A stretch of DNA of 64,000 nt from a virus: positions 1 through 64,000 of the IMG/VR virus record IMGVR_UViG_3300020538_000003. The stretch is one strand, 5' to 3'. The notes beneath the pieces are model-generated. The model had not been told where the DNA came from, made no database searches, and saw nothing but the letters and a program-made list of their open reading frames with translations. Position numbers and translations under genes: made by a program. Positions 4,766 through 33,672 of the stretch are shown piece after piece. The number at the start of each line of letters is the position of its first letter. The first letter of the stretch is position 1.

Positions 4766-5494
4766 ATGGGTATGTTCGATTACATAAGAATAGGAACAAC
4801 TCTACCAGAGTTGCCAGATGCGGTTATCTCTCATTGGGGAGATAAAGTAAGTGATATTGCCTTTCAAACGAAAGACACACCAAACCAAGCAATGTCAACC
4901 TATAGGATTGATGGTAATGGTCAATTGTGGTTTAAGAAGGTTGAAGGTCATTGGGAAAAGGGTAAAGAGGTTGCTGAAGACGCACCATTTAGCGAAAAGA
5001 TAGCTGCAATGGGTCACTTTGTGACTGATTCAGAGTGGTATGAGAAAGAATGTTTTAGCGGAAACATTTGCTTCTATGAAAGCTATAGTCATCCAGAATA
5101 TCACGAACTCGATGATCATGCTGGAAATAGCGATGAATGGATGAGATTCGTCCGTGGTTGGATAGAATATTCTGCACTTTTTAAAGACGGTAAGTTAATT
5201 GGTGATATCGAGTTAGTTAAACATGAAGAGCCACAAAAATTAACCGATGAAGAGCTTGCAGAAAGTAAAGCAAGGGTTGCCGCTCAACGCAAAGAAATGG
5301 AAGAGCGGTTCAGAGAGAATCGTAAAAAATATCCTACAGCTGAACAAAAGCTTATTGATAATATTGATAGAGAGACTAAACTTGTTGAAACTATTATGGA
5401 CGAGAGTGATTTTAGTTACGCAATAAGCAATATTAGAATTTTAATTAAAGAATATAGAGAAAAAACAGATACATGGTATGAACGAACTAAATAA
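4766..5494 (+). CDS. Conserved phage hypothetical protein
   Basis: MGMFD...FQTKD N-terminal signature; 242 aa. Confidence 0.75.
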   Translation: MGMFDYIRIGTTLPELPDAVISHWGDKVSDIAFQTKDTPNQAMSTYRIDGNGQLWFKKVEGHWEKGKEVAEDAPFSEKIAAMGHFVTDSEWYEKECFSGNICFYESYSHPEYHELDDHAGNSDEWMRFVRGWIEYSALFKDGKLIGDIELVKHEEPQKLTDEELAESKARVAAQRKEMEERFRENRKKYPTAEQKLIDNIDRETKLVETIMDESDFSYAISNIRILIKEYREKTDTWYERTK

Positions 5495-7877: not shown

Positions 7878-7889
7878 TCAATTTTCAAT

Positions 7890-7966
7890 CGCGGGGCAGT
7901 CAGTAGTGGTGCTGAACTAGTCTCATAAGCTAGGATTCGCTGTGAGTTCGACTCTCACCTCCGCAA
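7890..7966 (+). tRNA. tRNA-Met(CAT), initiator-like
   Basis: CGCGGGG/CTCCGCA with C1xA72 mismatch; CTCATAA loop; GTTCGACT T-loop; no encoded CCA. Confidence 0.85.
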
Positions 7967-7973
7967 TTTTTAT

Positions 7974-8059
7974 GGGTAGATACCCAAGTGGCTAAAGGGG
8001 GCAGACTGTAAATCTGCTGATGTATGTCTACGTTGGTTCGAATCCAACTCTGCCCACCA
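7974..8059 (+). tRNA. tRNA-Tyr(GTA)
   Basis: GGGTAGA/TCTGCCC, CTGTAAA loop, long variable arm, CCA. Confidence 0.95.
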
Positions 8060-8064
8060 TTTTC

Positions 8065-8138
8065 GCGGGATTTGTATAATGGCAATACGCCATCCTTCCA
8101 AGTTGGAGTCATCAGTTCGATTCTGATATCCCGCACCA
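8065..8138 (+). tRNA. tRNA-Gly(TCC)
   Basis: GCGGGAT/ATCCCGC, CTTCCAA loop, CCA. Confidence 0.92.
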
Positions 8139-8140
8139 AT

Positions 8141-8333
8141 TTTTCCCTGCCATTGTGGGCGATGATCCTACAATGAGCATTAAGGCTAAAGGCGGGTTAG
8201 CAACCCGATGATGCTAAATGTAATCCGACATAAATTAAAGTAGGCTTGGAGTCGCTACCAAGATGAAATAGTCACTGTGTTTCTTCAAATTGGTCAAAGC
8301 TCCGCTTGGCTAATTAATCGGTAGTGGGGAAAA
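8141..8333 (+). ncRNA. Unassigned multibranch structured RNA (about 193 nt)
   Basis: Closing stem TTTTCCCT/GGGGAAAA plus hairpins 8151-8175, 8176-8215 (inner 8193-8207), 8245-8262 and 8288-8315. Confidence 0.65.
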
Positions 8334-8338
8334 TACTT

Positions 8339-8409
8339 TGCGAGAGGGATCATGCGGAGATCGCTAGGCCCATAGTCTAGAGTGGAGGTTAAATTCCCTC
8401 CCCTCGCAA
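8339..8409 (+). tRNA. Degenerate tRNA-like gene, anticodon CAT
   Basis: TGCGAG/CTCGCA acceptor, GATC/GATC D-stem, CTAGG/TCTAG stem with loop CCCATAG, atypical T-loop TTAAATTC. Confidence 0.6.
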
Positions 8410-8410
8410 T

Positions 8411-8505
8411 TCGTATTCATACGCGATCAAAGTATGACGTTGCTAGGAGCGGTTCCCTAGATAGTCACAGCCCTTGATGAGTCGTAGGCCGAAATGCTAT
8501 GGGCA
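8411..8505 (+). ncRNA. Structured element with an imperfect hammerhead-like core
   Basis: Hairpins 8417-8437 and 8443-8460; GCCC-TTGATGA-stem-GAAA...GGGC at 8470-8504. Confidence 0.3.
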
Positions 8506-8521
8506 AATCATTTTCTATGTT

Positions 8522-8659
8522 TTTCTATTGTGGTCTTTATCGCCCGAAGTATGTTGGGAAAGCAGATTGGAAATCTCCGACGAGCCTCTACTAGCAGAAA
8601 AGTGACAGAAGGATAAACGAGTGGTGTCTTTAAGACCAAAGCTTCTTCAGCAATAGAAA
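8522..8659 (+). ncRNA. Unassigned structured RNA (about 138 nt)
   Basis: TTTCTATTG/CAATAGAAA and TGGTCTT/AAGACCA nested stems, with internal hairpins. Confidence 0.55.
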
Positions 8660-8670
8660 GTATTTTTAAC

Positions 8671-8692
8671 TCCAAAGTAGCTCAGTTAGTAG
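8671..8692 (+). pseudogene. 5' remnant of a tRNA gene (Asn-like start)
   Basis: TCCAAAGTAGCTCAGTTAGTAG is an acceptor 5' strand plus D-arm start; it is cut off by the antisense HNH gene. Confidence 0.55.
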
Positions 8693-9230
8693 TATTTAAA
8701 TTTATTAATTTAAGTCTTTTTCTAATAGATGTTTCAGAAACATTTAAAATTTTTGAAATTTTTATATTTGATAAATTTTGTTTCTTTAATTCAAGAAGAT
8801 CTTCATCTGTGAATTTTCTTTTGTTGTTATTATAACAAAGTGTGCAATAATTTGCGCTTGGATCTTTTTGATTACCACAAACACATTTTCTTTTATTAGT
8901 TATTATTAATTTTTGCTCTTTTAAAAAATCATCATTAAATTGATAAAAATTTGTTGGTAAATCAACATAATTATTATGCACTTCTCTATGACAATTTGCA
9001 CAAAGCAAAATACATTTTTTCAATTCTGGTACGACAACATTATCCCAACTTTTTGGATTTGCGCGAATATTTGCTAATCCAATATCTTTTTTAGATGGAT
9101 CTAAATGATGAAATTCTAAAGATGCATTGCATTTGTTGTAACCGCAAATCTGACAACATCCACCCATACACTTAATCATTTTATCTTTATTATTTTTTCT
9201 CCACTCTTTTACTTTTTCTTTACTCATCAT
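8682..9230 (-). CDS. HNH homing endonuclease with C-terminal HTH
   Basis: GGCCQICGYNKC..SLEFHHLDP..K...KCILLCANCHREVH; C-terminal SNIKISKILNVSETSIRKRL. Confidence 0.88.
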   Translation of the reverse strand: MMSKEKVKEWRKNNKDKMIKCMGGCCQICGYNKCNASLEFHHLDPSKKDIGLANIRANPKSWDNVVVPELKKCILLCANCHREVHNNYVDLPTNFYQFNDDFLKEQKLIITNKRKCVCGNQKDPSANYCTLCYNNNKRKFTDEDLLELKKQNLSNIKISKILNVSETSIRKRLKLINLNTTN

Positions 9231-9233
9231 GTA

Positions 9234-9297
9234 ATAATAAGTTTTTAAGTTCGAATTTCAAATTAAACTTTGACAAAAAAATATTTTAACATATAAT
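9234..9297. promoter_or_regulatory. Back-to-back promoters (HNH leftward, tRNA array rightward)
   Basis: Minus strand: TTGAAA(9261-9256)-16-TATTAT(9239-9234). Plus strand: TTGACA(9270-9275)-16-TATAAT(9292-9297). Confidence 0.7.
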
Positions 9298-9312
9298 AAA
9301 ACATAATTTTAA

Positions 9313-9387
9313 TGTAGAGTGGCAGACTAGCAATGCATTCGCCTGTTAAGCGAAACTATGTGGGAGCGTAACCCACCTCTACAGCCA
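9313..9387 (+). tRNA. tRNA-Asn(GTT) with atypical T-loop
   Basis: TGTAGAG/CTCTACA, G73, CTGTTAA loop, T-loop AGCGTAA, CCA. Confidence 0.88.
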
Positions 9388-9393
9388 TTTTTA

Positions 9394-9468
9394 GCCGATT
9401 TAGCACAGTGGTAGTGCAACTCATTTGTAATGAGTAGGTCGTTGGTTCGAATCCGACAATCGGCTCCA
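9394..9468 (+). tRNA. tRNA-Thr(TGT)
   Basis: GCCGATT/AATCGGC, TTTGTAA loop, CCA. Confidence 0.95.
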
Positions 9469-9476
9469 TAATTTCC

Positions 9477-9550
9477 CGCACGTTGGCAGAGAAGTCATGC
9501 AGTGGTCTGCAAAACCGCATAGTCCAGAGCGTTACTGGAACGTGCGTCCA
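9477..9550 (+). tRNA. tRNA-Cys(GCA) with atypical T-loop
   Basis: CGCACGT/ACGTGCG, U73, CTGCAAA loop, T-loop AGCGTTA, CCA. Confidence 0.88.
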
Positions 9551-9552
9551 AT

Positions 9553-9625
9553 GGGGAGTTAGCACAGCGGTAGTTGCGTCTGCTTTACACGCAGAATGTC
9601 GGGGGTTCGAATCCCTCACTCCCTA
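9553..9625 (+). tRNA. tRNA-Val(TAC)
   Basis: GGGGAGT/ACTCCCT, TTTACAC loop, canonical T-loop; no encoded CCA. Confidence 0.9.
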
Positions 9626-9628
9626 TTT

Positions 9629-10975
9629 TTATCTACTTACTTCTTCCCAATCCATTGAGGCGAGAACTTTTGCAGGATTTCCTCCTGTTGCGGTTCCAGC
9701 AGAAATAGCTAATGTTAATTCTTGAGCAGCACCAGTTAAACCATTTCTTTCTAATTGGAATTTGAAAAGAGCTTCTTTTAAGATGTCGAGAGTTGCACTT
9801 GCTTGATTTGTTTGGCTAATAAATCCTGCGGCAAGTATTCTACCACCAGAAATGGTTGTGGCATCTTTTTTATATTCTACAGCAGAATTTGCTCCAGCAG
9901 AAATCCAGTCTCCACTTCCACCACTTGTTGTCCCGTTTGCAATTATTTTCCATTTAAAATTACCAGTTGTTGTTGGTAAAATAGAAAGCGCAGTAAGAAT
10001 TACTATTGCGTCTAATCTTGTTGACTTTAATTTAATAGTAATTACTGGGTAGTCAGTATTTACCGTTGTTATTAACTCGTAAGGGGCATTGACATCTTGA
10101 CTTACTGCTTGTTGTAATCCTCTCAATTCATATCCACCTTCCGAAATAACAGAAGAACAAATTTGTTTTAATGTGCTGCTGTCAGTAGTTGCGGCAGTAT
10201 TTGCTATTTCATATCTCAGCGGCAAAGAAGCTGTAGTAATATAAGTAGAAGTAATAATATTAGCGTGATGAAAAGTATGACAAAGAATAAATTGTCCATT
10301 AATAACAAACCCCATTCTTACTGAACCTAATCCCAACCATTCAATATCCATCCACAAAATTTGGGCTTTAGTGATATCTAAAGTAAAACCAGAAGCGCCA
10401 GTTCCATCTAGCTTGTCCCCATTCCAATTTGCTTTAGATACTCTTATTTCTGTAGCAGGAGATCCATTGACCAAAGAACGTTCAACAAAACTTAAAGTAG
10501 AACCATCGAGTTCTAAATACATTCCATTATCAGCGCCAAAATAACCCACTCTTTGTCTTAAACCAGTTTTTGCTGGTGACATTACAAAAGTATTTAAGGT
10601 TAATAATGATTTTCCTGGTTGATAAGCAAAAACTTTCGTTGTTTCTCTAGTAACGAATGAACCAGAAGCGTTTGTTACAGTCAAATCAACCAATCCTTGA
10701 TTTTGATTAAAAGAACCACTACCACTAACACCACTAGCAGTAGACCAAAGACCATTGTCAGCATACCTATGACTTGAATCAAATAAAGTCAATGGAGAAG
10801 AAATTCTCATGCGACCAAACGCATCAAAAGCAGTAGAACTAGCAGAATTGGCAAAACTTAAATCGCTTTGCTCTAAGGGTCTGTACACATCGTTTGCGCG
10901 ATCATATATACAAGGAATTTGTCCTGCTGTATGCGACAATTGACCAAGATTTTGGAAAGTATAGAGATCTGCCAT
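9629..10975 (-). CDS. Probable virion-associated protein inserted antisense in the tRNA array
   Basis: 448 aa, beta-rich, DAFGRMRIS and DIEWLGLG motifs; preceded by the GTGTAA motif. Confidence 0.7.
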   Translation of the reverse strand: MADLYTFQNLGQLSHTAGQIPCIYDRANDVYRPLEQSDLSFANSASSTAFDAFGRMRISSPLTLFDSSHRYADNGLWSTASGVSGSGSFNQNQGLVDLTVTNASGSFVTRETTKVFAYQPGKSLLTLNTFVMSPAKTGLRQRVGYFGADNGMYLELDGSTLSFVERSLVNGSPATEIRVSKANWNGDKLDGTGASGFTLDITKAQILWMDIEWLGLGSVRMGFVINGQFILCHTFHHANIITSTYITTASLPLRYEIANTAATTDSSTLKQICSSVISEGGYELRGLQQAVSQDVNAPYELITTVNTDYPVITIKLKSTRLDAIVILTALSILPTTTGNFKWKIIANGTTSGGSGDWISAGANSAVEYKKDATTISGGRILAAGFISQTNQASATLDILKEALFKFQLERNGLTGAAQELTLAISAGTATGGNPAKVLASMDWEEVSR

Positions 10976-11019
10976 CCATTTATTTACACTTTTAATTCGA
11001 AAACTTTCTGAAATTTATC

Positions 11020-11047
11020 TTGACCCCAAGTGAATGTGTGTTATACT
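11020..11047 (+). promoter_or_regulatory. Sigma70-like promoter with extended -10
   Basis: TTGACC(11020-11025)-16-TATACT(11042-11047), with TG at 11039-11040. Confidence 0.7.
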
Positions 11048-11072
11048 AATTTCACAGTCGAGAGATTGCAAT

Positions 11073-11156
11073 GGCCGTGTGGTGAAATTGGTAAACACTG
11101 CGGACTTAAAATCCGTTGCCTTTATCGGCTTGTCGGTTCGAGTCCGACCACGGCTA
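11073..11156 (+). tRNA. tRNA-Leu(TAA)
   Basis: GGCCGTG/CACGGCT, CTTAAAA loop, variable arm; no encoded CCA. Confidence 0.92.
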
Positions 11157-11240
11157 GAGACAGAAATCACACTACTTCCACGTAGTCTGTCTTGGATGCT
11201 TATAATTTAGAAGTAACTAAATGTGTGATGATAATTAAAA

Positions 11241-11324
11241 ACGCTTGTGCGCAGAATGGTTAATGCCGCCGACTCATAATCGGTTCGCCTTCGGGGGTTA
11301 CAGGTTCGAATCCTGTCGGGCGTA
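11241..11324 (+). tRNA. tRNA(CAT), Met or Ile2, with long variable arm
   Basis: ACGCTTG/CGGGCGT, CTCATAA loop, variable arm with CTTCGG hairpin, canonical T-arm. Confidence 0.85.
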
Positions 11325-11342
11325 TTAAATTTTCTACATATT

Positions 11343-11434
11343 CCATCAGTGACCAGAATCGGTAATGGCCTTTCTTTATAAGGGAGCATGGGTGTGAAAA
11401 CCCTTTGTGAGTTCAAGTCTCACCTGATGGACCA
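11343..11434 (+). tRNA. tRNA(TAT), nominally Ile, with long variable arm
   Basis: CCATCAG/CTGATGG, A73-CCA, TTTATAA loop, variable arm GGGT-GTGAAA-ACCC. Confidence 0.85.
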
Positions 11435-11446
11435 ATTTCTAACAAT

Positions 11447-11572
11447 ATGAACAAAAAAGAACAAAAAACAAAACACAAGAAAATTAAACGTCCTGGAGTT
11501 CATGCAAAAAGCAAAACTTCTCATTTGAAACAATCTAAAAATTATAGAAAAAAATATAAAGGGCAAGGATAA
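11447..11572 (+). CDS. 41-aa highly basic peptide
   Basis: Manually translated MNKKEQKTKHKKIKRPGVHAKSKTSHLKQSKNYRKKYKGQG. Confidence 0.65.
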   Translation: MNKKEQKTKHKKIKRPGVHAKSKTSHLKQSKNYRKKYKGQG

Positions 11573-11598
11573 TTTTATTATAATAAGTATTGTTAAAT

Positions 11599-11689
11599 GG
11601 GTAGATGACAGAGCGGTTTATTGTGCAGATCTTGAAAATCTGAGAGGGTGATGAATCCTCCGTGGGTTCGAATCCTACTCTACCCGCCA
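11599..11689 (+). tRNA. tRNA-Ser(TGA)
   Basis: GGGTAGA/TCTACCC, G73-CCA, CTTGAAA loop, long variable arm. Confidence 0.95.
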
Positions 11690-11723
11690 ATTTTTAGTGT
11701 AATAATATAAAATAGACAAAACG

Positions 11724-12221
11724 ATGCCTTTACCAAAACCAAAAAATAAAGAAAAGAAGAGCGACTTTATTGGTCGTTGTGTATCTGAAGTAGCAAAAGA
11801 TCCAAAATTTGAAGATAATAAACAACGTGTCGCAATTTGCTATACTCAATTTGACGAATCAAAATCAGAAGCTTCTATCGTTGGTGAAATCGACGGAGAA
11901 GAATTTCTTATTTTTTCAGAGCTAAAAGAAAAAGAGCATAAAGTTGGGATATCACAAGCTCAAGAAATTGATATGAATGCTCCAGAAATGGAACAAGAAA
12001 CTCCAGAACAAGAACTTCAAGAAACAAATAAAGATCTTTATGAAATGGCAGTTGGTTCAATCACATCAATTAAAGCTCATGCAGATAATATTTTAAATGC
12101 CTTGAATGACCTTAAAGTTCAAGAAAATCTTACAGAAACATGGATGCAGGGAAAGCTTGCTATTGCTGAAGATTATTTAGTTACTGTTCATAACTATGTT
12201 ATGTTCAATAAAGAAAATTAA
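11724..12221 (+). CDS. Hypothetical protein (possibly head-associated)
   Basis: MPLPKPK..E.KSDFIGRC...QRVAICY N-terminal motif; upstream GTGTAA. Confidence 0.65.
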   Translation: MPLPKPKNKEKKSDFIGRCVSEVAKDPKFEDNKQRVAICYTQFDESKSEASIVGEIDGEEFLIFSELKEKEHKVGISQAQEIDMNAPEMEQETPEQELQETNKDLYEMAVGSITSIKAHADNILNALNDLKVQENLTETWMQGKLAIAEDYLVTVHNYVMFNKEN

Positions 12222-12289
12222 GGGTGCGATTATTGGTTTCGACATGACGCTTGTCGTGGAATGAGGTTCGATCCCTCACGCATCCACCA
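12222..12289 (+). ncRNA. Minimal tmRNA: tRNA-like domain only, no tag ORF
   Basis: GGGTGCG-ATTATTGGTTTCGA-CATGAC(GCTT)GTCGTG-GAA-TGAGG(TTCGATC)CCTCA-CGCATCC-ACCA; G3:U70, A73, stemless D-loop. Confidence 0.8.
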
Positions 12290-12291
12290 TT

Positions 12292-12381
12292 GGTGAGATG
12301 GCTGAGTGGTTTAAAGCACTCCCTTGCTAAGGGAACGTAGTAGAAATATTACCAAGGGTTCAAATCCCTTTCTCACCGCCA
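12292..12381 (+). tRNA. tRNA-Ser(GCT)
   Basis: GGTGAGA/TCTCACC, G73-CCA, TTGCTAA loop, long variable arm. Confidence 0.95.
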
Positions 12382-19572: not shown

Positions 19573-22092
19573 TTAAATTACTGCCCAGCCTTTTAATAGG
19601 GCTGTTCCAGTTCTTAATTGTCTAAATGTTAAACTATTTGCACCCCCCGCAGCCATTTGTCGTGATACTGTGATGCTTACGTTGGGGTTAATTGATACAA
19701 CCTGCGTTCTATAGCGTAAAGTTCCAGAACCGTTTGTAGTTAATGCTAGTGGCACTAGACCACCCAATGTTGCCGCTACTTGAAATGTTCCAGCTGTAGC
19801 ATTGACTACATAATAAATTCTATTAGTAACAATACCAGTCGTTGTTACTATAGTTGCAAAAGAAACTTCATCCCCATTACTTAATCCATGACTTGCAAGG
19901 TTGACTAAATCACCTGCGTCTGTGAATGTCACAGCTCTAAATGTTGTAAGAGGGGAACCAGTACCAGTAATTTGCATACCTACAACAATACCAGTTGTAT
20001 TTGCCATACTTATTGTCGTACTACCGACAGTTGTAGTTCCTGTAAGAGTTACAGGTGTCGGCGCTCCCCAATTGTTTGTTACTGTTATTTGTTGAGAAAC
20101 AGTACCTATTGTGTCTAGATAATTGAATATAGATTCTAATTCTTCTTTTGATAATTTACAACCACTATAACTTATTGAATATTCAGATCCGCTTAATGCT
20201 GCTCTTGTAAGTGATATACAACTTGTAAAAATACTACCAAACTTTCCTGTACTTGTTCCAGCACCTGAAATTAATAACGGTACAGTTGTAAGAGAAGAGC
20301 AACCACTAAACATAGAACTCATATTAGTAACAGCTGCTGTATTGAATAACGGTACACTTGCAAGAGAAGAGCAACCACTAAACATACTAACCATATTAGT
20401 AACAGCAGCTGTATTAAACAGTGGTACAGTTGTAAGAGAAGTACAACTATTAAACATACCACCCATATTAGTAACAGCTGCTGTATTAAACAGTGGTACG
20501 CTTGTAAGAGAAGAGCAACCACTAAACATACTACTCATATCAGTAACAGCCCCTGTATTGAATAACGGTACACTTGTAAGAGAAGTACAACTACTAAACA
20601 TACTATTCATACTAGTAACAGCTGCTGTATTAAACAGTGGTACAGTTGTAAGAGAAGTACAACTATTAAACATAGAACTCGTGAATTGCACAGCCCCTGT
20701 ATTGAATAACGGTACACTTGCAAGAGAAGAGCAACCACTAAACATACTAACCATATTAGTAACAGCAGCTGTATTAAACAGAGGTACAGTTGTAAGAGAA
20801 GTACAACCACTAAACATACTAACCATATTAGTAACAGCTATTGTATTAAAAAGCGGTACACTTGTAAGAGAAGTACAACTAAAAAACATACTACCCATAC
20901 TAGTAACAGCTGCTGTATTGAATAGTGGTACACTTGTAAGTGATCTACAGCTAAAAAACATTCCTTCTGGTGGAATATTACCTCCCATAGTAGTAACATT
21001 TTGCGTGTTAAATAATGGTACAGTCTGAAGACGGGAACAAGAGGCAAACATACTATTCATATTAGTAACAGCCCCTGTATTGAATAGTGGAACACTTGTA
21101 AGAGAAGAGCAACCACTAAACATAGAACTCATATTAGTAACAGCTGCTGTATTGAATAACGGTACACTTGTAAGAGAAGTACAACTACTAAACATACTAT
21201 TCATACTAGTAACAGCTGCTGTATTAAACAGTGGTACGCTTGTAAGAGAAGTACAACTACTAAACATACCACTCATAGTAGTAACAGCTGCTGTATTGAA
21301 TAATGGTACAGTATTAAGAGACCTGCAATTATTAAACATACTAGTCATATTAGTAACACTTCCTGTATCAGACAATGATACACTTATAAGACTAGAACAA
21401 CCACTAAATGCACTTGTCATATTAGTAACGTTAGTAGTACCGCTGAGGGATATATTTTTTAATGAAGTTAAATTGGCAAATGAATTAGATAAGTTAGTTA
21501 ATAATCCCATATTGACTCCAGTGAAACTAACTAAATTTTTACAAAAAGCCAAAGAAGCGGTTGCATTACCAAGAGTTAAACCTGTTAAACTTGGGCAAGA
21601 TAAAACTATTTCTAATATAGGAGAAGAATCAGGAAATGTAGATCCCGTTAATGCATATTTTTGGTTAAAGTCTACACTTGTTATATTTTGACCAGCTTGA
21701 GGAGTAATGACTACAACTGCCATTTTATAACCATCACTTGTAACGGTGGCATTTAAATCTGGGTCGGTATAAGAGTATTCATGTTGAGCCTTAACACCAG
21801 ATGCAACATTTTCTGTTACACCATCACCCCAATCAACTGTATATGCTCCAGATATTGTAAAAGCGAGAAAGTTAGATTGTTGCGGAAACACTGGCATCAA
21901 CAAAGCTATTTTTTGCTCTGAAGATATTATAGTCGGCATTGTTAGCCAATCAGCTGGACGTGTCCAAGTACTTGATGTTGAGCTAGTAGGTGATGGTTGT
22001 TTAATACGCAGTCGATCAAATCTATCCTTTTTAAAAAAAGAAGACTTACGTGAGACTAACGGTCCAACTTTATTTCCGTAACGAATACTCAT
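19573..22092 (-). CDS. BspA/DUF285-type repeat protein, probable receptor-binding or virion protein
   Basis: 14 VPLFNT..VT.M..MF..C.SL units; N-terminal WTRPADW and VDWGDG. Confidence 0.85.
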   Translation of the reverse strand: MSIRYGNKVGPLVSRKSSFFKKDRFDRLRIKQPSPTSSTSSTWTRPADWLTMPTIISSEQKIALLMPVFPQQSNFLAFTISGAYTVDWGDGVTENVASGVKAQHEYSYTDPDLNATVTSDGYKMAVVVITPQAGQNITSVDFNQKYALTGSTFPDSSPILEIVLSCPSLTGLTLGNATASLAFCKNLVSFTGVNMGLLTNLSNSFANLTSLKNISLSGTTNVTNMTSAFSGCSSLISVSLSDTGSVTNMTSMFNNCRSLNTVPLFNTAAVTTMSGMFSSCTSLTSVPLFNTAAVTSMNSMFSSCTSLTSVPLFNTAAVTNMSSMFSGCSSLTSVPLFNTGAVTNMNSMFASCSRLQTVPLFNTQNVTTMGGNIPPEGMFFSCRSLTSVPLFNTAAVTSMGSMFFSCTSLTSVPLFNTIAVTNMVSMFSGCTSLTTVPLFNTAAVTNMVSMFSGCSSLASVPLFNTGAVQFTSSMFNSCTSLTTVPLFNTAAVTSMNSMFSSCTSLTSVPLFNTGAVTDMSSMFSGCSSLTSVPLFNTAAVTNMGGMFNSCTSLTTVPLFNTAAVTNMVSMFSGCSSLASVPLFNTAAVTNMSSMFSGCSSLTTVPLLISGAGTSTGKFGSIFTSCISLTRAALSGSEYSISYSGCKLSKEELESIFNYLDTIGTVSQQITVTNNWGAPTPVTLTGTTTVGSTTISMANTTGIVVGMQITGTGSPLTTFRAVTFTDAGDLVNLASHGLSNGDEVSFATIVTTTGIVTNRIYYVVNATAGTFQVAATLGGLVPLALTTNGSGTLRYRTQVVSINPNVSITVSRQMAAGGANSLTFRQLRTGTALLKGWAVI
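20270..21440 (-). repeat. 72-bp tandem coding repeat (about 15-17 units)
   Basis: CTGTATTGAATAACGGTACAC recurs at 20337 and 20697 (5x72 apart); one unit has a short insertion. Confidence 0.9.
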
Positions 22093-27464: not shown

Positions 27465-29804
27465 TTAATTAAAAATTAAGGTAGAATTGCCATTAATAAT
27501 TTCATTAGAAATATCTGGAATTAATTTTGACTCTATGGCTAAGTTTAAATTTTCTATAGAGTTATCTTCGGAACAATTTTTATCAACGAAACTCTTAATA
27601 AAATTAAAATTAAAATTTAATTTTATATCTTTTATAATTAAATTATTTTGAATTTTTTTCAATCTATTAAAAAGTATTCTTCTCAAATCTTTTTGTTTTA
27701 ATAAACTAAATTCAATTTTCTCTGTTATTAAATCTAAAATTTGTTTTTCAATTGTTGGTTCATTTGATTGATTCTTGTCTATATTAAACCCCATGCTTTT
27801 TGCATTAGCTTTACCACTGCATGTTAAGAAGATTTTGCAATTTGAAAAATCCGCAATATCTCCATTGTTCATTTGTAAGCGACCTTCTTTTAAGATTTGA
27901 CAAAACAAGCCAAAGCAAGATCTATCAACTTTATCAAAATCATCAATGATGATCACACTATTTGGATGTATGCATATTTTTTCAGCTAATGACGTATTGT
28001 TGTTTAAATCAGAAATAATCTTATAAGGAGCAAATGAATCAGAAAACTCTATACCATTATAACTTATAACATTAGTTCCCGTTTTTTGAAGTTCGTCTTT
28101 AATCAATTGACAAAAAAGGGTTTTTCCAACTAGTTTATTTCCATAAATTAATAAGCAATCTGGTTTATTGAAACTAGATTTAGCGCTCAAATTAAGATTT
28201 AATATACTTAATACGTTAAGTATTTTTTTAAGCGCGATGTTTTGCCCCACTAAATCTTTTTTAATATTACTAAAAATAATTTTGTTATTTTCAGTTCGAT
28301 TCATCGGATTTGTTTTTTTATCAAAAAATGTTTTTAGATGATCTAATTTAACATGAGCTTCTGTTTTTATTAGGTTTTTTTCCCAAGCTTCTATTCTCTC
28401 ATTCATTTCTTCTATCATTTCTTTTTCAAAATGACCATTCTTTTCTATGTATTCAAAAATCTCTTTTTGTTTGGTTTTGATTGATTCATCTACTTCCCAA
28501 AAATTAACTTTTGCTTGAGCGCCACAATGATCAATAACATCAATAGCTTTATCTGGATAAAATTTATTTGGAGTAAATCTTTCGCAAAAATTAATAACAT
28601 TTTCAACAAACTCTTCTGAATATTTAACATTATGAAAATCTGCATAATAATCAATTATTTGTGGCAAGATTTCATTCATTTGAAATTTAGATGGTTCTTT
28701 TACGATTACTCTTTCAAATCTTCTATCAAGAGCGGAATCTTTCTTAATTGTATTTGTATATTCAATAATAGTTGTAGCTCCTATACAACTAATTGTGCCA
28801 CGCGCAAGCTCTGGTTTTAAAATATTAGAAGCTTCAAGGGAGTGATTTTGTCCACCACCAGCACCAACTAAAGTATGAATCTCATCAATAAATAAAATTA
28901 AATTACTATATTTTTTTGCTTCCTCAACAAAATCTTGAAGTCTTTTTTCAAATTGACCACGATATTCTGTTCCAGCAACCATTGTTGCTAAATTAATTGA
29001 ATAAATAACTTTATTAGAAAGTAATTCTGGAGCTTCTCCTCTAATAATTTTTAAAGCAAGACCTTCTACTAATGAAGTTTTTCCAGTTCCAGCTGGGCCA
29101 ACCAAAATAGCATTTGGTTTTTTCTTTCTACATAAAATTGTAGCAAGTTCATCGATTTTATTATCGAAATCAATTATTTTGTCAAATTTGCCTTGCGCGG
29201 CTTTTATGTTAAGATTTTCTGCAAATTTTGAAAGAATTGGATTGTCAACAAACATATCAATCCAATCATCTATTTTATGATTTGGATTTTTATCATTTTC
29301 TTTGTCTTCTAAAAAATTAGAAGGAACACAAAAATCTTTACAGAAAATTAAAGTTTCTGATAAAAGTTCATTTATTATTTCATTATCTAATAATTGTTCG
29401 CTTTTTTTAATATCAAAATATTTATATACTGCTTTTGGCGTAAACTCTTCAGAAATAAAACAAATAATTAATGATTCTGGCGATATATAATCAATATTTA
29501 ATTGATCTTCGCAAATATTTTCTGCTAAAATAAAAAATCTTTTTAAATCTGGAAGAAAATGATCTGATGGTATTTTGCTTTTACCTTTTTTAACAAAAGA
29601 TAATGCAGTCTGTGTAAGCTTAACTGTATCTATATCACATCTTGAAAAAATATTAAAAGAAGATAAGTTTATCTTATTCATAAAACAATAAAAGAATAAA
29701 TCCAAATCAATTCCACTTTTATTTAAATTAATGGATAATAATTTGCAATCTTCTATTATTCCTTGTAAATGTGGTGTTATGGGAAGTTTAATCATTTTTT
29801 GCAT
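27465..29804 (-). CDS. ClpA/ClpC-like AAA+ ATPase
   Basis: GPAGTGKT, AGTEYRGQFE, FIDEIH, DSALDRRF, PDKAIDVID; divergent second AAA domain. Confidence 0.9.
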   Translation of the reverse strand: MQKMIKLPITPHLQGIIEDCKLLSINLNKSGIDLDLFFYCFMNKINLSSFNIFSRCDIDTVKLTQTALSFVKKGKSKIPSDHFLPDLKRFFILAENICEDQLNIDYISPESLIICFISEEFTPKAVYKYFDIKKSEQLLDNEIINELLSETLIFCKDFCVPSNFLEDKENDKNPNHKIDDWIDMFVDNPILSKFAENLNIKAAQGKFDKIIDFDNKIDELATILCRKKKPNAILVGPAGTGKTSLVEGLALKIIRGEAPELLSNKVIYSINLATMVAGTEYRGQFEKRLQDFVEEAKKYSNLILFIDEIHTLVGAGGGQNHSLEASNILKPELARGTISCIGATTIIEYTNTIKKDSALDRRFERVIVKEPSKFQMNEILPQIIDYYADFHNVKYSEEFVENVINFCERFTPNKFYPDKAIDVIDHCGAQAKVNFWEVDESIKTKQKEIFEYIEKNGHFEKEMIEEMNERIEAWEKNLIKTEAHVKLDHLKTFFDKKTNPMNRTENNKIIFSNIKKDLVGQNIALKKILNVLSILNLNLSAKSSFNKPDCLLIYGNKLVGKTLFCQLIKDELQKTGTNVISYNGIEFSDSFAPYKIISDLNNNTSLAEKICIHPNSVIIIDDFDKVDRSCFGLFCQILKEGRLQMNNGDIADFSNCKIFLTCSGKANAKSMGFNIDKNQSNEPTIEKQILDLITEKIEFSLLKQKDLRRILFNRLKKIQNNLIIKDIKLNFNFNFIKSFVDKNCSEDNSIENLNLAIESKLIPDISNEIINGNSTLIFN

Positions 29805-32355
29805 CTCTTAGTTTCATGTAAATTTTACTATCAATAATTTTAACATTATCTACAAATAATGTATCAGAACTTTTAGTTCCAGACAATATCAAAATATCTC
29901 CTTTTTGTACTTTATTATTTTCTGTGAAATTTGTTAATTTTGCTTCTCTTCTATTATCCATGAATAGAAACTTTTGATTTGCTTTATTGTCTGACAACAT
30001 AATCATCATATACTTATTGCCATTTGAACTAATTCTAATAAATGAATCCTTAACTTGACCAACAACTTTAAACTCACTTCTATCGACAAAATCATTAATG
30101 CTCTGAAGATCATCAAGAGTTCCAAATTCATCTTCAAAACATTCTTTTAATTCATGAGAATAACTATAGCCAAGCAAATAGTTTTCGTACCACCATTTAG
30201 AAAATTTATCATGCTTTTTGTTATGAGAATAAATTTCTTTATATTTTGAAAAATTATTTTTAAAAGTAATGAATCTTTTTTCAGAAATTACGAGTTTGTT
30301 GTCATCTCCAATAATTTTTTTCTCTACAACTTCTGCAATAGAGTTTAAAATATCAAAACCAAATCTATCACCTATCTTTACAAAATTACGTTTTTCTCGT
30401 TCCGTTAAAAGATTAAATGCTTGAGCTTCAAGAACAAGCCTACTTCTATCTGGAGAAGAATCAGACATTGTACCAGCCTGAATTAATGCTGATAATACTG
30501 AGATATTAATGCCAGCATTTTTAGCTGCGGTAAATACTTCATATTTGTTATTGAACGACAATCCTCTAAAATCAATTAAAGCTTCCAACGCCTTTACAGA
30601 AATACCTTTAATGCTGTTCAGACCATAACGAATATCATTACCCTCAATGCAAAAATTCATTTGAGAATGCTCTAAGGATGGGGGTAATAATTTTATTCCA
30701 AAATTAATTAATTCTTTACTAATGGTAGAAATATTTTCTAATGGATCTGGTTCAAATTCTGCGCATTCAAGAATGGAAACAAAAAATTCTTTAGGATATT
30801 TGTGCTTAAGATAAATTGTTTTAGCCGCCAACGTTGCATAAGCAAAACTATGAGATTTATTAAAAGAATAATCTGCAGATGCTTGAAGCGCATTCCAATA
30901 GAAGTCACTTATTTTTTCATCTAAGTTTTGTTGTTCTCCAGCTTTATAAATTTTTTCTTTCCATGCTGGCATATCATCAACTTTTTTCTTACCAACAATT
31001 CTTCTTAGAACTTCAGCTTCTTCAAGAGTTAATCCAAATACTTTATTAGCAATTTGCATAAGTTGTTCTTGATAAAGAATAACGTTCTTTGACCAAGAAA
31101 GAATTTTATCTAAATCGTCATGTAAGTTTAATTGACTTGGGTTTTGTTTTTGATCTTTATAAATTGAAACAAATTGTAATGCTCCAGGTCTAGCTAAAGC
31201 AATTACATCAGACAATTCATTTAAATTATTTGGTTTAATATCTTGACATACCTTAAAATTTGTATCCGCAGAAATCTGAAATAATCCCATTGGGTAATTA
31301 AAATTTTGAAGAACCTCGTAAATAAATTTATCATTTGGATCAATTTCATTTATATCAATGCCTACCTTTGAACATGTTTTATGAGCAATGGTTAATGTTC
31401 TAAGACCCAAGATATCGAACTTAACCATAAGGTCACTAACATCATTCATGTCATAACCAGTTACGATATCTCCATCTTTTGTTTTTTGAAGAGGAACTAC
31501 ATTACTAATTTTTTGAGAGCAGATTGCAATTCCTGATGGATGGACTCCAGTATTTTTATTTAAATTCTCTATTTTAAGAGCGTTTTCAAATGTTTTTTTA
31601 TGCTTCTTAATCCATTGATCAAATTTTTCATTTTCAGATCTAGCATTAGTTAAACTAAAAACTTTTCCATGCGCTTTAGGAATCATATCGCTAATCTCAT
31701 TAGCCTCTTCCTCTTTTGCTTCGTCAAAATATTTTGTAGCCTCTCTAATGCAAAGCTTTGAACTAAATGTATTAAATGTTAATATTTTTGCTGTTCTTCC
31801 AAGATGCTTTTTTTCAATATAATCTATAACTTTCTGTCTTTGATCATAAGAAATATCTGAATCAACGTCTGGAAGTAAACTTCCAACCAGATATTCTTTG
31901 CCTAATTTATCATAAACTTTTTGTGCGCGAGATTTGGAAACAAATCTTTCAAAGAAAAGATCATGGGGTATTGGGTCAATATTAGTTACGCCAAGCAAAT
32001 ACAAAACAAGACTACCAGCAGCAGAACCTCTTCCAGCGCCAGTTGGAATACTGTTAGTATGACAAAAATTTAAAATATCCCAGTTTAATAAAATATAATC
32101 AGTGAATCCAAGTTCATTAAATGTATCTAACTCTTGCTTCGCTCTATCATAGTATTTATCTTTATTCGTTTTTTTAGTTATACCTTTTTCTCTCAAAGCA
32201 TTTCTAACAAGAGATTTAAGCAGATCAAAACTAGAACTTTCATTATTAAGAGAAGCGTCTATTTTTTTTAACACTGACTCTTCGACAGAAATCTTTGGCA
32301 AATCTACACCTACTGGTTCACAATTATCGTAATTATAAAAATCTTTAAAAATCAT
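29788..32355 (-). CDS. dnaE: DNA polymerase III alpha catalytic core lacking the PHP domain
   Basis: GRGSAAGSLV, FFERF, PDVDSD, HPSG, KFDILGL, YQEQ, YSFNKSH, C-terminal OB fold. Confidence 0.95.
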   Translation of the reverse strand: MIFKDFYNYDNCEPVGVDLPKISVEESVLKKIDASLNNESSSFDLLKSLVRNALREKGITKKTNKDKYYDRAKQELDTFNELGFTDYILLNWDILNFCHTNSIPTGAGRGSAAGSLVLYLLGVTNIDPIPHDLFFERFVSKSRAQKVYDKLGKEYLVGSLLPDVDSDISYDQRQKVIDYIEKKHLGRTAKILTFNTFSSKLCIREATKYFDEAKEEEANEISDMIPKAHGKVFSLTNARSENEKFDQWIKKHKKTFENALKIENLNKNTGVHPSGIAICSQKISNVVPLQKTKDGDIVTGYDMNDVSDLMVKFDILGLRTLTIAHKTCSKVGIDINEIDPNDKFIYEVLQNFNYPMGLFQISADTNFKVCQDIKPNNLNELSDVIALARPGALQFVSIYKDQKQNPSQLNLHDDLDKILSWSKNVILYQEQLMQIANKVFGLTLEEAEVLRRIVGKKKVDDMPAWKEKIYKAGEQQNLDEKISDFYWNALQASADYSFNKSHSFAYATLAAKTIYLKHKYPKEFFVSILECAEFEPDPLENISTISKELINFGIKLLPPSLEHSQMNFCIEGNDIRYGLNSIKGISVKALEALIDFRGLSFNNKYEVFTAAKNAGINISVLSALIQAGTMSDSSPDRSRLVLEAQAFNLLTEREKRNFVKIGDRFGFDILNSIAEVVEKKIIGDDNKLVISEKRFITFKNNFSKYKEIYSHNKKHDKFSKWWYENYLLGYSYSHELKECFEDEFGTLDDLQSINDFVDRSEFKVVGQVKDSFIRISSNGNKYMMIMLSDNKANQKFLFMDNRREAKLTNFTENNKVQKGDILILSGTKSSDTLFVDNVKIIDSKIYMKLRDAKND

Positions 32356-32966
32356 AGTTCCATATTTTTTTTAATTTCTAGAAAAATCTTGAAGCACATT
32401 TCGCAATCATAAACAGCTTCATGCAGTTTCTTTTCGTCAAATTCAATGCCAAAAAATTTCAATTGTTGAATTTGAGATACTTTTGATTTTAATGACCTAT
32501 CATGCATTATTTTATATTGCCATGATAAGAAATCATGTTTAGGTTTATCAAGCTTTTCTCTAAAAGCTTTACCCAAACATCTTGTGTCATAAATTCTATT
32601 TAAATAAGAATAATCTGGTTTTTCGCCAAGCAATTTTTGCAAAACAGCTATCATATAAACATCAAAACCAAGAATATTCTGTCCTACAATTATATAATCA
32701 TCATTATATAAGTAGTTTTTAAATTTCTCCCATACCTCTTTTGGTTTTTTCTTTTTCTTATTATAAGAATCTAAATTAAATCCAGTTAATTTAATTACTG
32801 TATCATTAAGCTTTAAATCTGGATATGAAATGTATTCATCATGTTTCTCAATAACGCGATTACCTTGACAAACAATCCAAGCTAGTTGCCAAGGTCTTGA
32901 TGATGATAAATTTAACCCTTCAGTTTCTGTATCAAATACGATATATTTTTGATTATATGGGAGCAT
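32352..32966 (-). CDS. DnaQ-like DEDDh 3'-5' exonuclease
   Basis: FDTETEG, GQN..GFD, HEAVYD. Confidence 0.88.
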   Translation of the reverse strand: MLPYNQKYIVFDTETEGLNLSSSRPWQLAWIVCQGNRVIEKHDEYISYPDLKLNDTVIKLTGFNLDSYNKKKKKPKEVWEKFKNYLYNDDYIIVGQNILGFDVYMIAVLQKLLGEKPDYSYLNRIYDTRCLGKAFREKLDKPKHDFLSWQYKIMHDRSLKSKVSQIQQLKFFGIEFDEKKLHEAVYDCEMCFKIFLEIKKNMEL

Positions 32967-33672
32967 GATTTTCTAGATATGATTGCCAGCAAAACTCATT
33001 TGAGCAAAAATGATTTAAATTTGGATTTGAATAAGATGGATTTTTTCCATTTGAGCGATTACAAATTGCTTTATACATTTGAAACGCTTCAAAATCTTCT
33101 TTATTTTTATAATAAATTGATTTTGCATTTTGAATTGGTTGTTTAGATCCATTCATTGTAACTCTATTGACTTGATTTTTTATAAAGAAATCAAATGGAT
33201 GATTATTGTCCTCAATAAAATAAAAATGATCAAATTTGGATAGTTCCAAATGAGACAAACCGAAATAAAATAAATTATTATAAATATAAGAGTCGTAAAA
33301 TGGAACTCCTATTTTAACATTATTGAAGAATAATTCATCTACTTCAGACAAGTTTAAAACAATTTCTTTATTTTCAAAAGTTTTTGAATAGAGGGCTTTT
33401 ATATTATTTATGCCATCATTGTTTTTTGCAAAGAAAATTAATTTACTAGGAAGTTCGGAAAATGAATTTTCAACAACTGATAATCTTATTCCAAAGATTA
33501 ATTTAATACCAAGTTCTTGAGCAACATTATTAATACTCCTAAAGCCATAAAAAGAGTCTTCAACAACAACAATTTCACTAAGATTATATTCTGATTTAAT
33601 ATCAAATATATCTTTTGGCTGCAAAATGGATCGCCCAATACTAAAGTGAGTTTTAAAAAGAGGTATTGCCAC
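32953..33672 (-). CDS. Stand-alone PHP domain of DnaE
   Basis: THFSIGRS, IKLIFG, FAKNNDGINNI match the DnaE N-terminus. Confidence 0.75.
   Translation of the reverse strand: MAIPLFKTHFSIGRSILQPKDIFDIKSEYNLSEIVVVEDSFYGFRSINNVAQELGIKLIFGIRLSVVENSFSELPSKLIFFAKNNDGINNIKALYSKTFENKEIVLNLSEVDELFFNNVKIGVPFYDSYIYNNLFYFGLSHLELSKFDHFYFIEDNNHPFDFFIKNQVNRVTMNGSKQPIQNAKSIYYKNKEDFEAFQMYKAICNRSNGKNPSYSNPNLNHFCSNEFCWQSYLENHAPI

Follow-up and report, generated by a model that had tools for sequence, protein, structure and literature searches.

The question raised by this locus is whether a tailed phage encodes a tmRNA of which only the tRNA-like domain (TLD) is left and, if so, what such an RNA may do during infection. 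The initial annotation, made from the letters of the sequence, had read a 68-nt element at positions 12222–12289 (plus strand) of the window, i.e., of the whole 64,000-nt stretch of viral DNA analyzed here, as a natural tag-less mini-tmRNA. The window is a low-GC (~30%) tailed-phage genome, and its phage nature is shown by genes of the virion, lysis, and replication. The genes of replication and nucleotide metabolism encode a split Pol III alpha subunit, primase, DnaB, RecA, ribonucleotide reductase, ThyX, and dUTPase, and the other genes encode a Lon-like protease, an endolysin, glycosyltransferases, and structural proteins. The window ORFs scanned yielded neither an integrase nor a translation factor. 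Pol III alpha (29788–33672, minus strand) is seemingly divided among three adjacent ORFs corresponding to the PHP domain, an RNase T-like exonuclease, and the polymerase core. An 839-aa protein (19573–22092, minus strand) contains six DUF285 repeats, a Mycoplasma-type repeat family.

A direct reading of the sequence matched the description of the element base for base (Table 1). Its minimum free energy fold was the same as the centroid fold and as the described structure (−22.3 kcal/mol). The folding-energy z-score of −1.47 was unremarkable taken alone, and the case against chance was therefore built on homology. The features typical of the TLD of tmRNA were all present: GG and UUC in the D-loop, the tandem G.A/A.G, GGA-N before the T arm, and the T arm with a UUCGAnU-type loop. 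A D stem and an anticodon arm with a 7-nt loop, as expected of a tRNA, were absent; the helix after UUCGA opens with the tandem G.A/A.G and is closed by a 4-nt loop. Only GCUU lies between the strands of this helix, and neither a resume codon nor a tag reading frame nor a stop codon is present. The linker GAA of the initial annotation is correct as a sequence but, according to the RF00023 alignment, should rather be divided into the 3′ half of the tandem and a one-base linker.

Table 1. Features of the mini-tmRNA and of its immediate surroundings in the window.
Feature	Position	Strand	Basis
tRNA island of 10–11 tRNA genes, with the mini-tmRNA second-to-last	7889–12381	+	ARAGORN, Rfam
Co-oriented 165-aa ORF, TAA stop abutting the first base of the mini-tmRNA	11724–12221	+	Sequence
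TLD-only (tag-less) tmRNA gene, whole, 68 nt	12222–12289	+	Sequence, fold, RF00023, family model R1
Acceptor stem (7 bp), 5′ strand GGGUGCG, G3 paired with U70	12222–12228	+	Pairs with 12279–12285
Stemless D-loop analogue AUUAUUGGUUUC, GG and UUC as in tmRNA	12229–12240	+	RF00023 alignment
Tandem G.A/A.G	GA 12241–12242 with GA 12259–12260	+	Fold, RF00023 alignment
6-bp helix CAUGAC/GUCGUG	CAUGAC 12243–12248, GUCGUG 12253–12258	+	Fold, RF00023 alignment
GCUU tetraloop in place of pseudoknots and tag frame	12249–12252	+	Fold, RF00023 alignment
One-base linker A (tmRNA consensus: C)	12261	+	RF00023 alignment
T arm	UGAGG 12262–12266, UUCGAUC 12267–12273, CCUCA 12274–12278	+	Fold, RF00023 alignment
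Acceptor stem 3′ strand CGCAUCC, discriminator A73, genome-encoded CCA	12279–12285, 12286, 12287–12289	+	Sequence
tRNA-Ser(GCU), 2 nt downstream of the mini-tmRNA, followed by a T run	12292–12381	+	ARAGORN; Rfam 58.3 bits

The Rfam tmRNA model (RF00023), proposed as a check in the initial annotation, covered the mini-tmRNA end to end (model positions 1–374), with 312 internal positions, including pseudoknots PK1–PK4, replaced by 4 nt. The score was 39.1 bits for the element cut out exactly and 47.7 bits when 4.9 kb were searched, and thus straddled the gathering score of 47. The D-loop was aligned to the tmRNA consensus 'GAucuGGaUUC', and in clan competition the tmRNA model outscored the tRNA model (RF00005). 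The mini-tmRNA was not reported when the whole 64-kb window was searched with Rfam at the gathering threshold with fast filters. ARAGORN called neither a tmRNA nor a tRNA at this position and no tmRNA anywhere in the window; this program depends on the tag frame to call a tmRNA, and it also overlooked those relatives of the mini-tmRNA that were scanned with it. A separate mRNA-like or tag domain was sought across the tRNA island by Rfam and ARAGORN, and none was found. The sole match of the mascRNA model (RF01684) in the region was a weak one (16.8 bits) to the neighboring tRNA-Ser.

Relatives were gathered by three motif scans of IMG/VR viral contigs, a pattern search that had likewise been suggested in the initial annotation; all counts are lower bounds. 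At least 97 viral loci were obtained, representing at least 65 distinct relatives of 62–84 nt which share the architecture of the window mini-tmRNA. The relatives listed fall into two length classes, a short one of ~62–70 nt that includes the window gene and a long one of ~76–84 nt. RF00023 matched the relatives end to end with 47.6–75.3 bits, over its gathering score of 47. The identical 68 nt were found in three other metagenome contigs. Two of them (L026 and L052) showed 97% identity to the window across 6–7 kb. In the third (L045), the flanks were 88–92% identical, i.e., 8–12% different, yet the mini-tmRNA was the same, which argues for selection on it. The occurrence of one sequence in independent contigs, together with relatives that carry the mini form and not a full ssrA, rules out both an assembly collapse of a full-length gene and a one-off deletion, the two possibilities that the initial annotation had named. 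No match was obtained by blastn against GenBank phages with the window mini-tmRNA and one marine-type relative as queries, and the nearest virus record (G001) contained no copy of the mini-tmRNA.

A scan of viral contigs with a pattern one N longer before TCCACCA returned eight loci, of which seven were TLD-only genes with one extra base. The same pattern applied to prokaryote genomes returned six loci, none of them a mini-tmRNA. In a sub-group of mini-tmRNAs, located on six contigs (L177, L178, L179, and L181–L183), the stretch from the T loop to the 3′ end is longer by one base. Two different mini-tmRNAs are located on L181, at 1562–1638 and 5108–5183; one of them has the T loop UCCGAUU and was found only by the family covariance model R1.

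Model R1 was built from ten 66-nt members with the window gene excluded. It scored the window gene at 66.2 bits (E 1e-12) and the TLD-only gene of Mycobacterium phage DS6A, considered below, at 41.1 bits. Covariation was measured on a 72-row alignment based on R1, since MAFFT misaligned the 5′ ends of the family. In this alignment, which is fitted to the model and hence favors the structure, 98.0% of the pair cells held standard pairs, vs. 68.2% after shuffling and 47–58% with the partners slid; the covariation score was 0.712, vs. 0.141 and at most 0.115, respectively, and both sides changed in 13 of the 18 pairs. Register-based pair counts agreed with the model-fitted covariation. Among the members listed, T-stem pairs 1–3 were paired in all cases with 4–5 pair types across the family, the pairs of the central helix covaried, and the D-loop analogue varied from 9 to 14 nt in length. 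The 5′ half of the tandem G.A/A.G was present in 65 of 65 and the 3′ half in 62 of 65 of the matches listed. Since the last scan pattern fixed T70, C71, C72, A73, and CCA, the G3:U70 pair was counted only in the scan that did not fix it, where all of the matches listed (26/26) had it. Acceptor pairs 4–7 covaried among the members listed while G3:U70 was invariant. The pair was also present in the DS6A gene and in the copy on L181 detected solely by R1, the latter with A73 and CCA as well. Conservation was thus seen at positions that the search patterns did not impose, namely the 3′ GGA of the tandem (62/65 listed), T-stem pairs 1–3, and helix pairs 4–8. We are therefore highly confident that the mini-tmRNA is a TLD-only homologue of tmRNA under selection, and the initial annotation was borne out by the fold, RF00023, and R1 in that all TLD elements follow one another in the normal order, with a tetraloop in place of the pseudoknots and the tag frame.

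In the window, the tRNA-Ser(GCU) gene following the mini-tmRNA is probably the last gene of its transcript. The 165-aa ORF preceding it had no PHROG or Pfam match, and its counterpart in L045 is shorter, with the stop codon 4 nt upstream of the mini-tmRNA. The surrounding 2.5 kb gave blastn matches to tRNA genes only. The location within a tRNA island is not general for the family: among the at least 65 distinct members, 12 had a tRNA gene within 1 kb and 50 had none within 4 kb. Most listed members being remote from tRNA genes, the mini-tmRNA is not a by-product of tRNA clusters. A co-oriented ORF ending 6–90 nt upstream was observed in many relatives. Clustering of the ORFs within 3 kb of the 65 listed members revealed only lineage-specific small proteins, none of them SmpB, and no protein family accompanying the mini-tmRNA across lineages.

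SmpB was searched for in the window in six frames with a profile of our own and was not found (best E 0.46); none was detected in the closest related records or in 15 other mini-tmRNA-bearing viral records, five of which are at least 90% complete. Any SmpB partner must therefore come from the host, judging by the DNA examined. In these 15 records, the mini form was the only tmRNA-like gene, and no full-length tmRNA was present.

Several other features of the tRNA island and of related contigs were observed. A virion structural protein is encoded antisense inside the island (9629–10975, minus strand); it is 65% identical to proteins of the T4-like cyanophages S-RIM12 and S-RIM8 and may reflect horizontal transfer, whereas other genes of the phage have no close cultured relatives. 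The tRNA-Ile(UAU) called by ARAGORN at 11343–11434 is 92 nt long vs. 73 nt for the L045 copy (473–545), has an extra hairpin of ~15 nt in the variable region, and was not reported by the Rfam tRNA model. A tRNA at 9313–9384 was detected by Rfam (46.8 bits) and not called by ARAGORN. A GC-rich non-coding stretch (8141–8660) gave no known family or tag frame by Rfam or ARAGORN; its sole match was a weak, sub-threshold tRNA-like one at 8340–8408 (22.5 bits). On contig L046, an ORF for an HNH endonuclease (1044–1591) is located between an intact 81-nt mini-tmRNA and tRNA-Ser(GCU), and directly before the tRNA-Ser, at the 2-nt spacing seen in the window, stands the remnant of a mini-tmRNA 3′ end (...TCCCCACGCTCCACCA, followed by TT). 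This arrangement suggests a homing insertion of the HNH ORF into an ancestral pair of mini-tmRNA and tRNA-Ser. Ahead of the mini form, this contig has ~250 nt of non-coding DNA that is GC-rich. A 489-nt 'tmRNA' called there by ARAGORN was rejected as spurious, as it starts inside an ORF and Rfam places the 81-nt mini form at its 3′ end.

Tag-less tmRNAs were known to the initial annotation only from some mitochondria and from engineered constructs. This statement is wrong, and the novelty was overstated, since a phage TLD-only tmRNA of this type is already on record: 'Mycobacterium phage DS6A (TLD only)' is listed by Hudson, Lau and Williams (PMC4131195), and the entry, according to which DS6A encodes little beyond the TLD, is repeated in the 2025 tmRNA database paper (PMC11915505). 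We located the DS6A gene at JN698994 28478–28560, with the architecture of the window gene. Both are phage-encoded, have the elements in the standard order with G3:U70, A73, a stemless D-loop, a closed helix, and a T arm, and lack a tag frame. Both also score near or below the RF00023 threshold (43.2 bits for DS6A vs. 39.1–47.7 bits) and are matched end to end by R1. The DS6A gene is longer (83 nt) and has a longer, loop-interrupted helix, whereas the 68-nt window gene has a plain 6-bp helix with a tetraloop. In DS6A, the motif GGUCGAC stands instead of UUCGAC and CCA is not fully encoded, unlike in the window. The DS6A gene stands alone in a temperate actinophage with an integrase; the window gene belongs to a tRNA island of a low-GC genome in which no integrase was found.

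The same comparison was extended to other tmRNA-like and tRNA-like RNAs. Bacterial tmRNA (SsrA, RF00023) shares with the window gene the whole TLD, i.e., G3:U70, A73, CCA, the GG..UUCGAC D-loop, the tandem G.A, GGA-N, and the T arm; its resume codon, tag frame, stop codon, and pseudoknots have no counterpart, 312 of the 374 model positions being reduced to 4 nt. Without an mRNA-like domain, the window gene product cannot serve as a messenger. CDS-less tmRNA genes of ~65 bp occur in plastids of Mallomonadaceae, and a part in dealing with incomplete mRNAs is ascribed to the CDS-less tmRNAs of some plastids and of jakobid mitochondria (PMC11915505). By their description, these organellar RNAs resemble the window gene in being naturally tag-less, of similar size, and presumed users of SmpB (PMC11915505). 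They are, however, organelle-encoded, rely on nuclear-encoded, imported SmpB, and are the cell's own rescue RNAs, whereas the window gene is viral and would act alongside a host tmRNA that is intact. Complete tmRNAs occur in ~2.3% of phage genomes (PMC9004378) and are also phage-borne homologues of ssrA, as in Melnitz (two-piece ssrA; PMC9004378) and the Bxz1-type mycobacteriophages (PMC4131195), but they keep a tag frame detectable by ARAGORN; the window gene has none and was not called. Elements of the mascRNA type (RF01684), like the window gene, are small and tRNA-like, have no decoding anticodon arm, and lie at the end of an upstream transcript; the tmRNA-type D-loop, the G.A tandem, and the alanine identity are found in the window gene and not in them.

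Trans-translation is the main bacterial ribosome-rescue pathway. In it, SmpB brings the tmRNA complex to the vacant A site; G3:U70 serves as the identity element for alanine. The tandem G.A/A.G of the mini-tmRNA corresponds to G19, A20, G333, and A334 of E. coli tmRNA, where point mutations are reported to impair SmpB binding. The TLD is the SmpB-binding region of tmRNA, and SmpB enhances its charging (PMC3022190). Against this background, an SmpB decoy and a tag-less rescue RNA are the two leading readings of the function suggested by the sequence, both of them raised in the initial annotation. We lean, with some reserve, toward the mini-tmRNA being an alanyl-chargeable, SmpB-binding competitor of the host tmRNA. 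The RNA would be transcribed together with the phage tRNA genes and then trimmed at both ends in the manner of a tRNA, CCA being already encoded. The host alanyl-tRNA synthetase would charge it via G3:U70 and A73, and host SmpB would bind its D-loop and G.A elbow. Having no resume codon or tag frame, the RNA would be unable to direct ssrA tagging; it would take SmpB, and probably also EF-Tu and stalled ribosomes, in competition with full-length host tmRNA, so that trans-translation and proteolytic tagging would be suppressed during infection. According to the passages on DS6A in PMC4131195 and PMC11915505, which cite Mao et al. (2009), a molecule like that of DS6A is a strong inhibitor of tmRNA whether or not it can be charged, perhaps through titration of SmpB; the inhibition was, by the same passages, obtained upon over-expression in E. 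coli. This reported effect of a similar RNA backs the competitor reading. Several phages, on the other hand, need or even encode complete tmRNAs (PMC9004378), and blocking trans-translation is thus not obviously beneficial to every phage.

A strict G3:U70 pair would be needless for pure titration of SmpB, which suggests that the charged form matters on the ribosome; this fits the other leading reading, productive rescue without a tag, equally well. In that case the alanyl-mini-tmRNA, with host SmpB and EF-Tu, would enter ribosomes that have stalled on non-stop or damaged mRNAs to accept the nascent chain, which would gain one or a few alanines and be released by drop-off and peptidyl-tRNA hydrolase or by an ArfB-type factor. 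Ribosomes would be freed quickly, and phage proteins would be spared the degradation tag. Charging appears to be under selection, as G3:U70 was retained in every member examined while the neighboring acceptor pairs covary, and the encoded CCA and the place among tRNA genes are consistent with a tRNA-like use. The role ascribed to the CDS-less organellar tmRNAs (PMC11915505) and the modeling of Ala-TLD with the SmpB body as a mimic of aminoacyl-tRNA in the A site (PMC3022190) point in the same direction. However, without a resume codon, the A site would be empty after translocation and a further release factor would be required; the window ORFs scanned yielded no release factor. The test of a similar RNA described in the DS6A passage of PMC4131195 gave inhibition whether or not the RNA was chargeable. 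Productive rescue is the main rival of the competitor reading, but we regard it as rather doubtful.

Two further explanations were considered. The element could be a punctuation mark of RNA processing, i.e., an RNase P signal that fixes where the upstream mRNA ends and parts it from tRNA-Ser, in the manner of mascRNA, which defines the 3′ end of MALAT1. The stop codon abutting the mini-tmRNA in the window and the co-oriented ORFs that end shortly upstream of many relatives agree with such a role, but in L045 the ORF does not abut the element, and 50 of the at least 65 distinct members have no tRNA gene within 4 kb. Alternatively, the element could be a relic with no function, left by the decay of an ssrA or a tRNA-Ala or by the capture of an attachment-site fragment. 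Elements that integrate into ssrA do carry 3′ fragments of this gene (PMC11590407, PMC9004378). The window gene, however, has both halves of the TLD, perfectly paired, and no integrase was detected among the window ORFs scanned; the tRNA model scores below the tmRNA model; the compensatory changes across the 65 listed sequences indicate selection on the fold; and the L045 gene has stayed identical while its flanks differ by 8–12%. The conservation is specific to tmRNA, and the D-loop, the G.A tandem, G3:U70, and CCA are needless for a processing signal. For this reason, a processing role seems very improbable to us, and a relic is hardly credible.

If the mini-tmRNA blocks or short-circuits trans-translation, it would offer a compact and transferable means of turning ssrA tagging off, and phages would be shown to manipulate translation quality control. 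The phage Lon-like ATP-dependent protease (27465–29804, minus strand; phrog_4871, E 1e-109) is of possible interest in a genome whose mini-tmRNA may affect proteolytic tagging. A more specific form of the rescue reading, which we offer tentatively and consider unlikely, is that the mini-tmRNA is a phage-supplied, alanine-charged, tag-free rescue RNA which, with host SmpB, releases untagged chains from ribosomes stalled by RNA-cutting host defenses or by the processing of phage mRNA. If so, phage proteins would escape ClpXP and Lon, ribosomes would be recycled faster than by full trans-translation, and the gene would represent a widespread phage counter-measure at the level of translation quality control. 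To our knowledge, there seems to be only one functional experiment on RNAs of this kind. To the DS6A-type kind, the family of which is poorly annotated, the window gene adds a member that is short, low in GC, and located within a tRNA operon, and it further supports the view that genes of this type occur commonly among uncultured phages.
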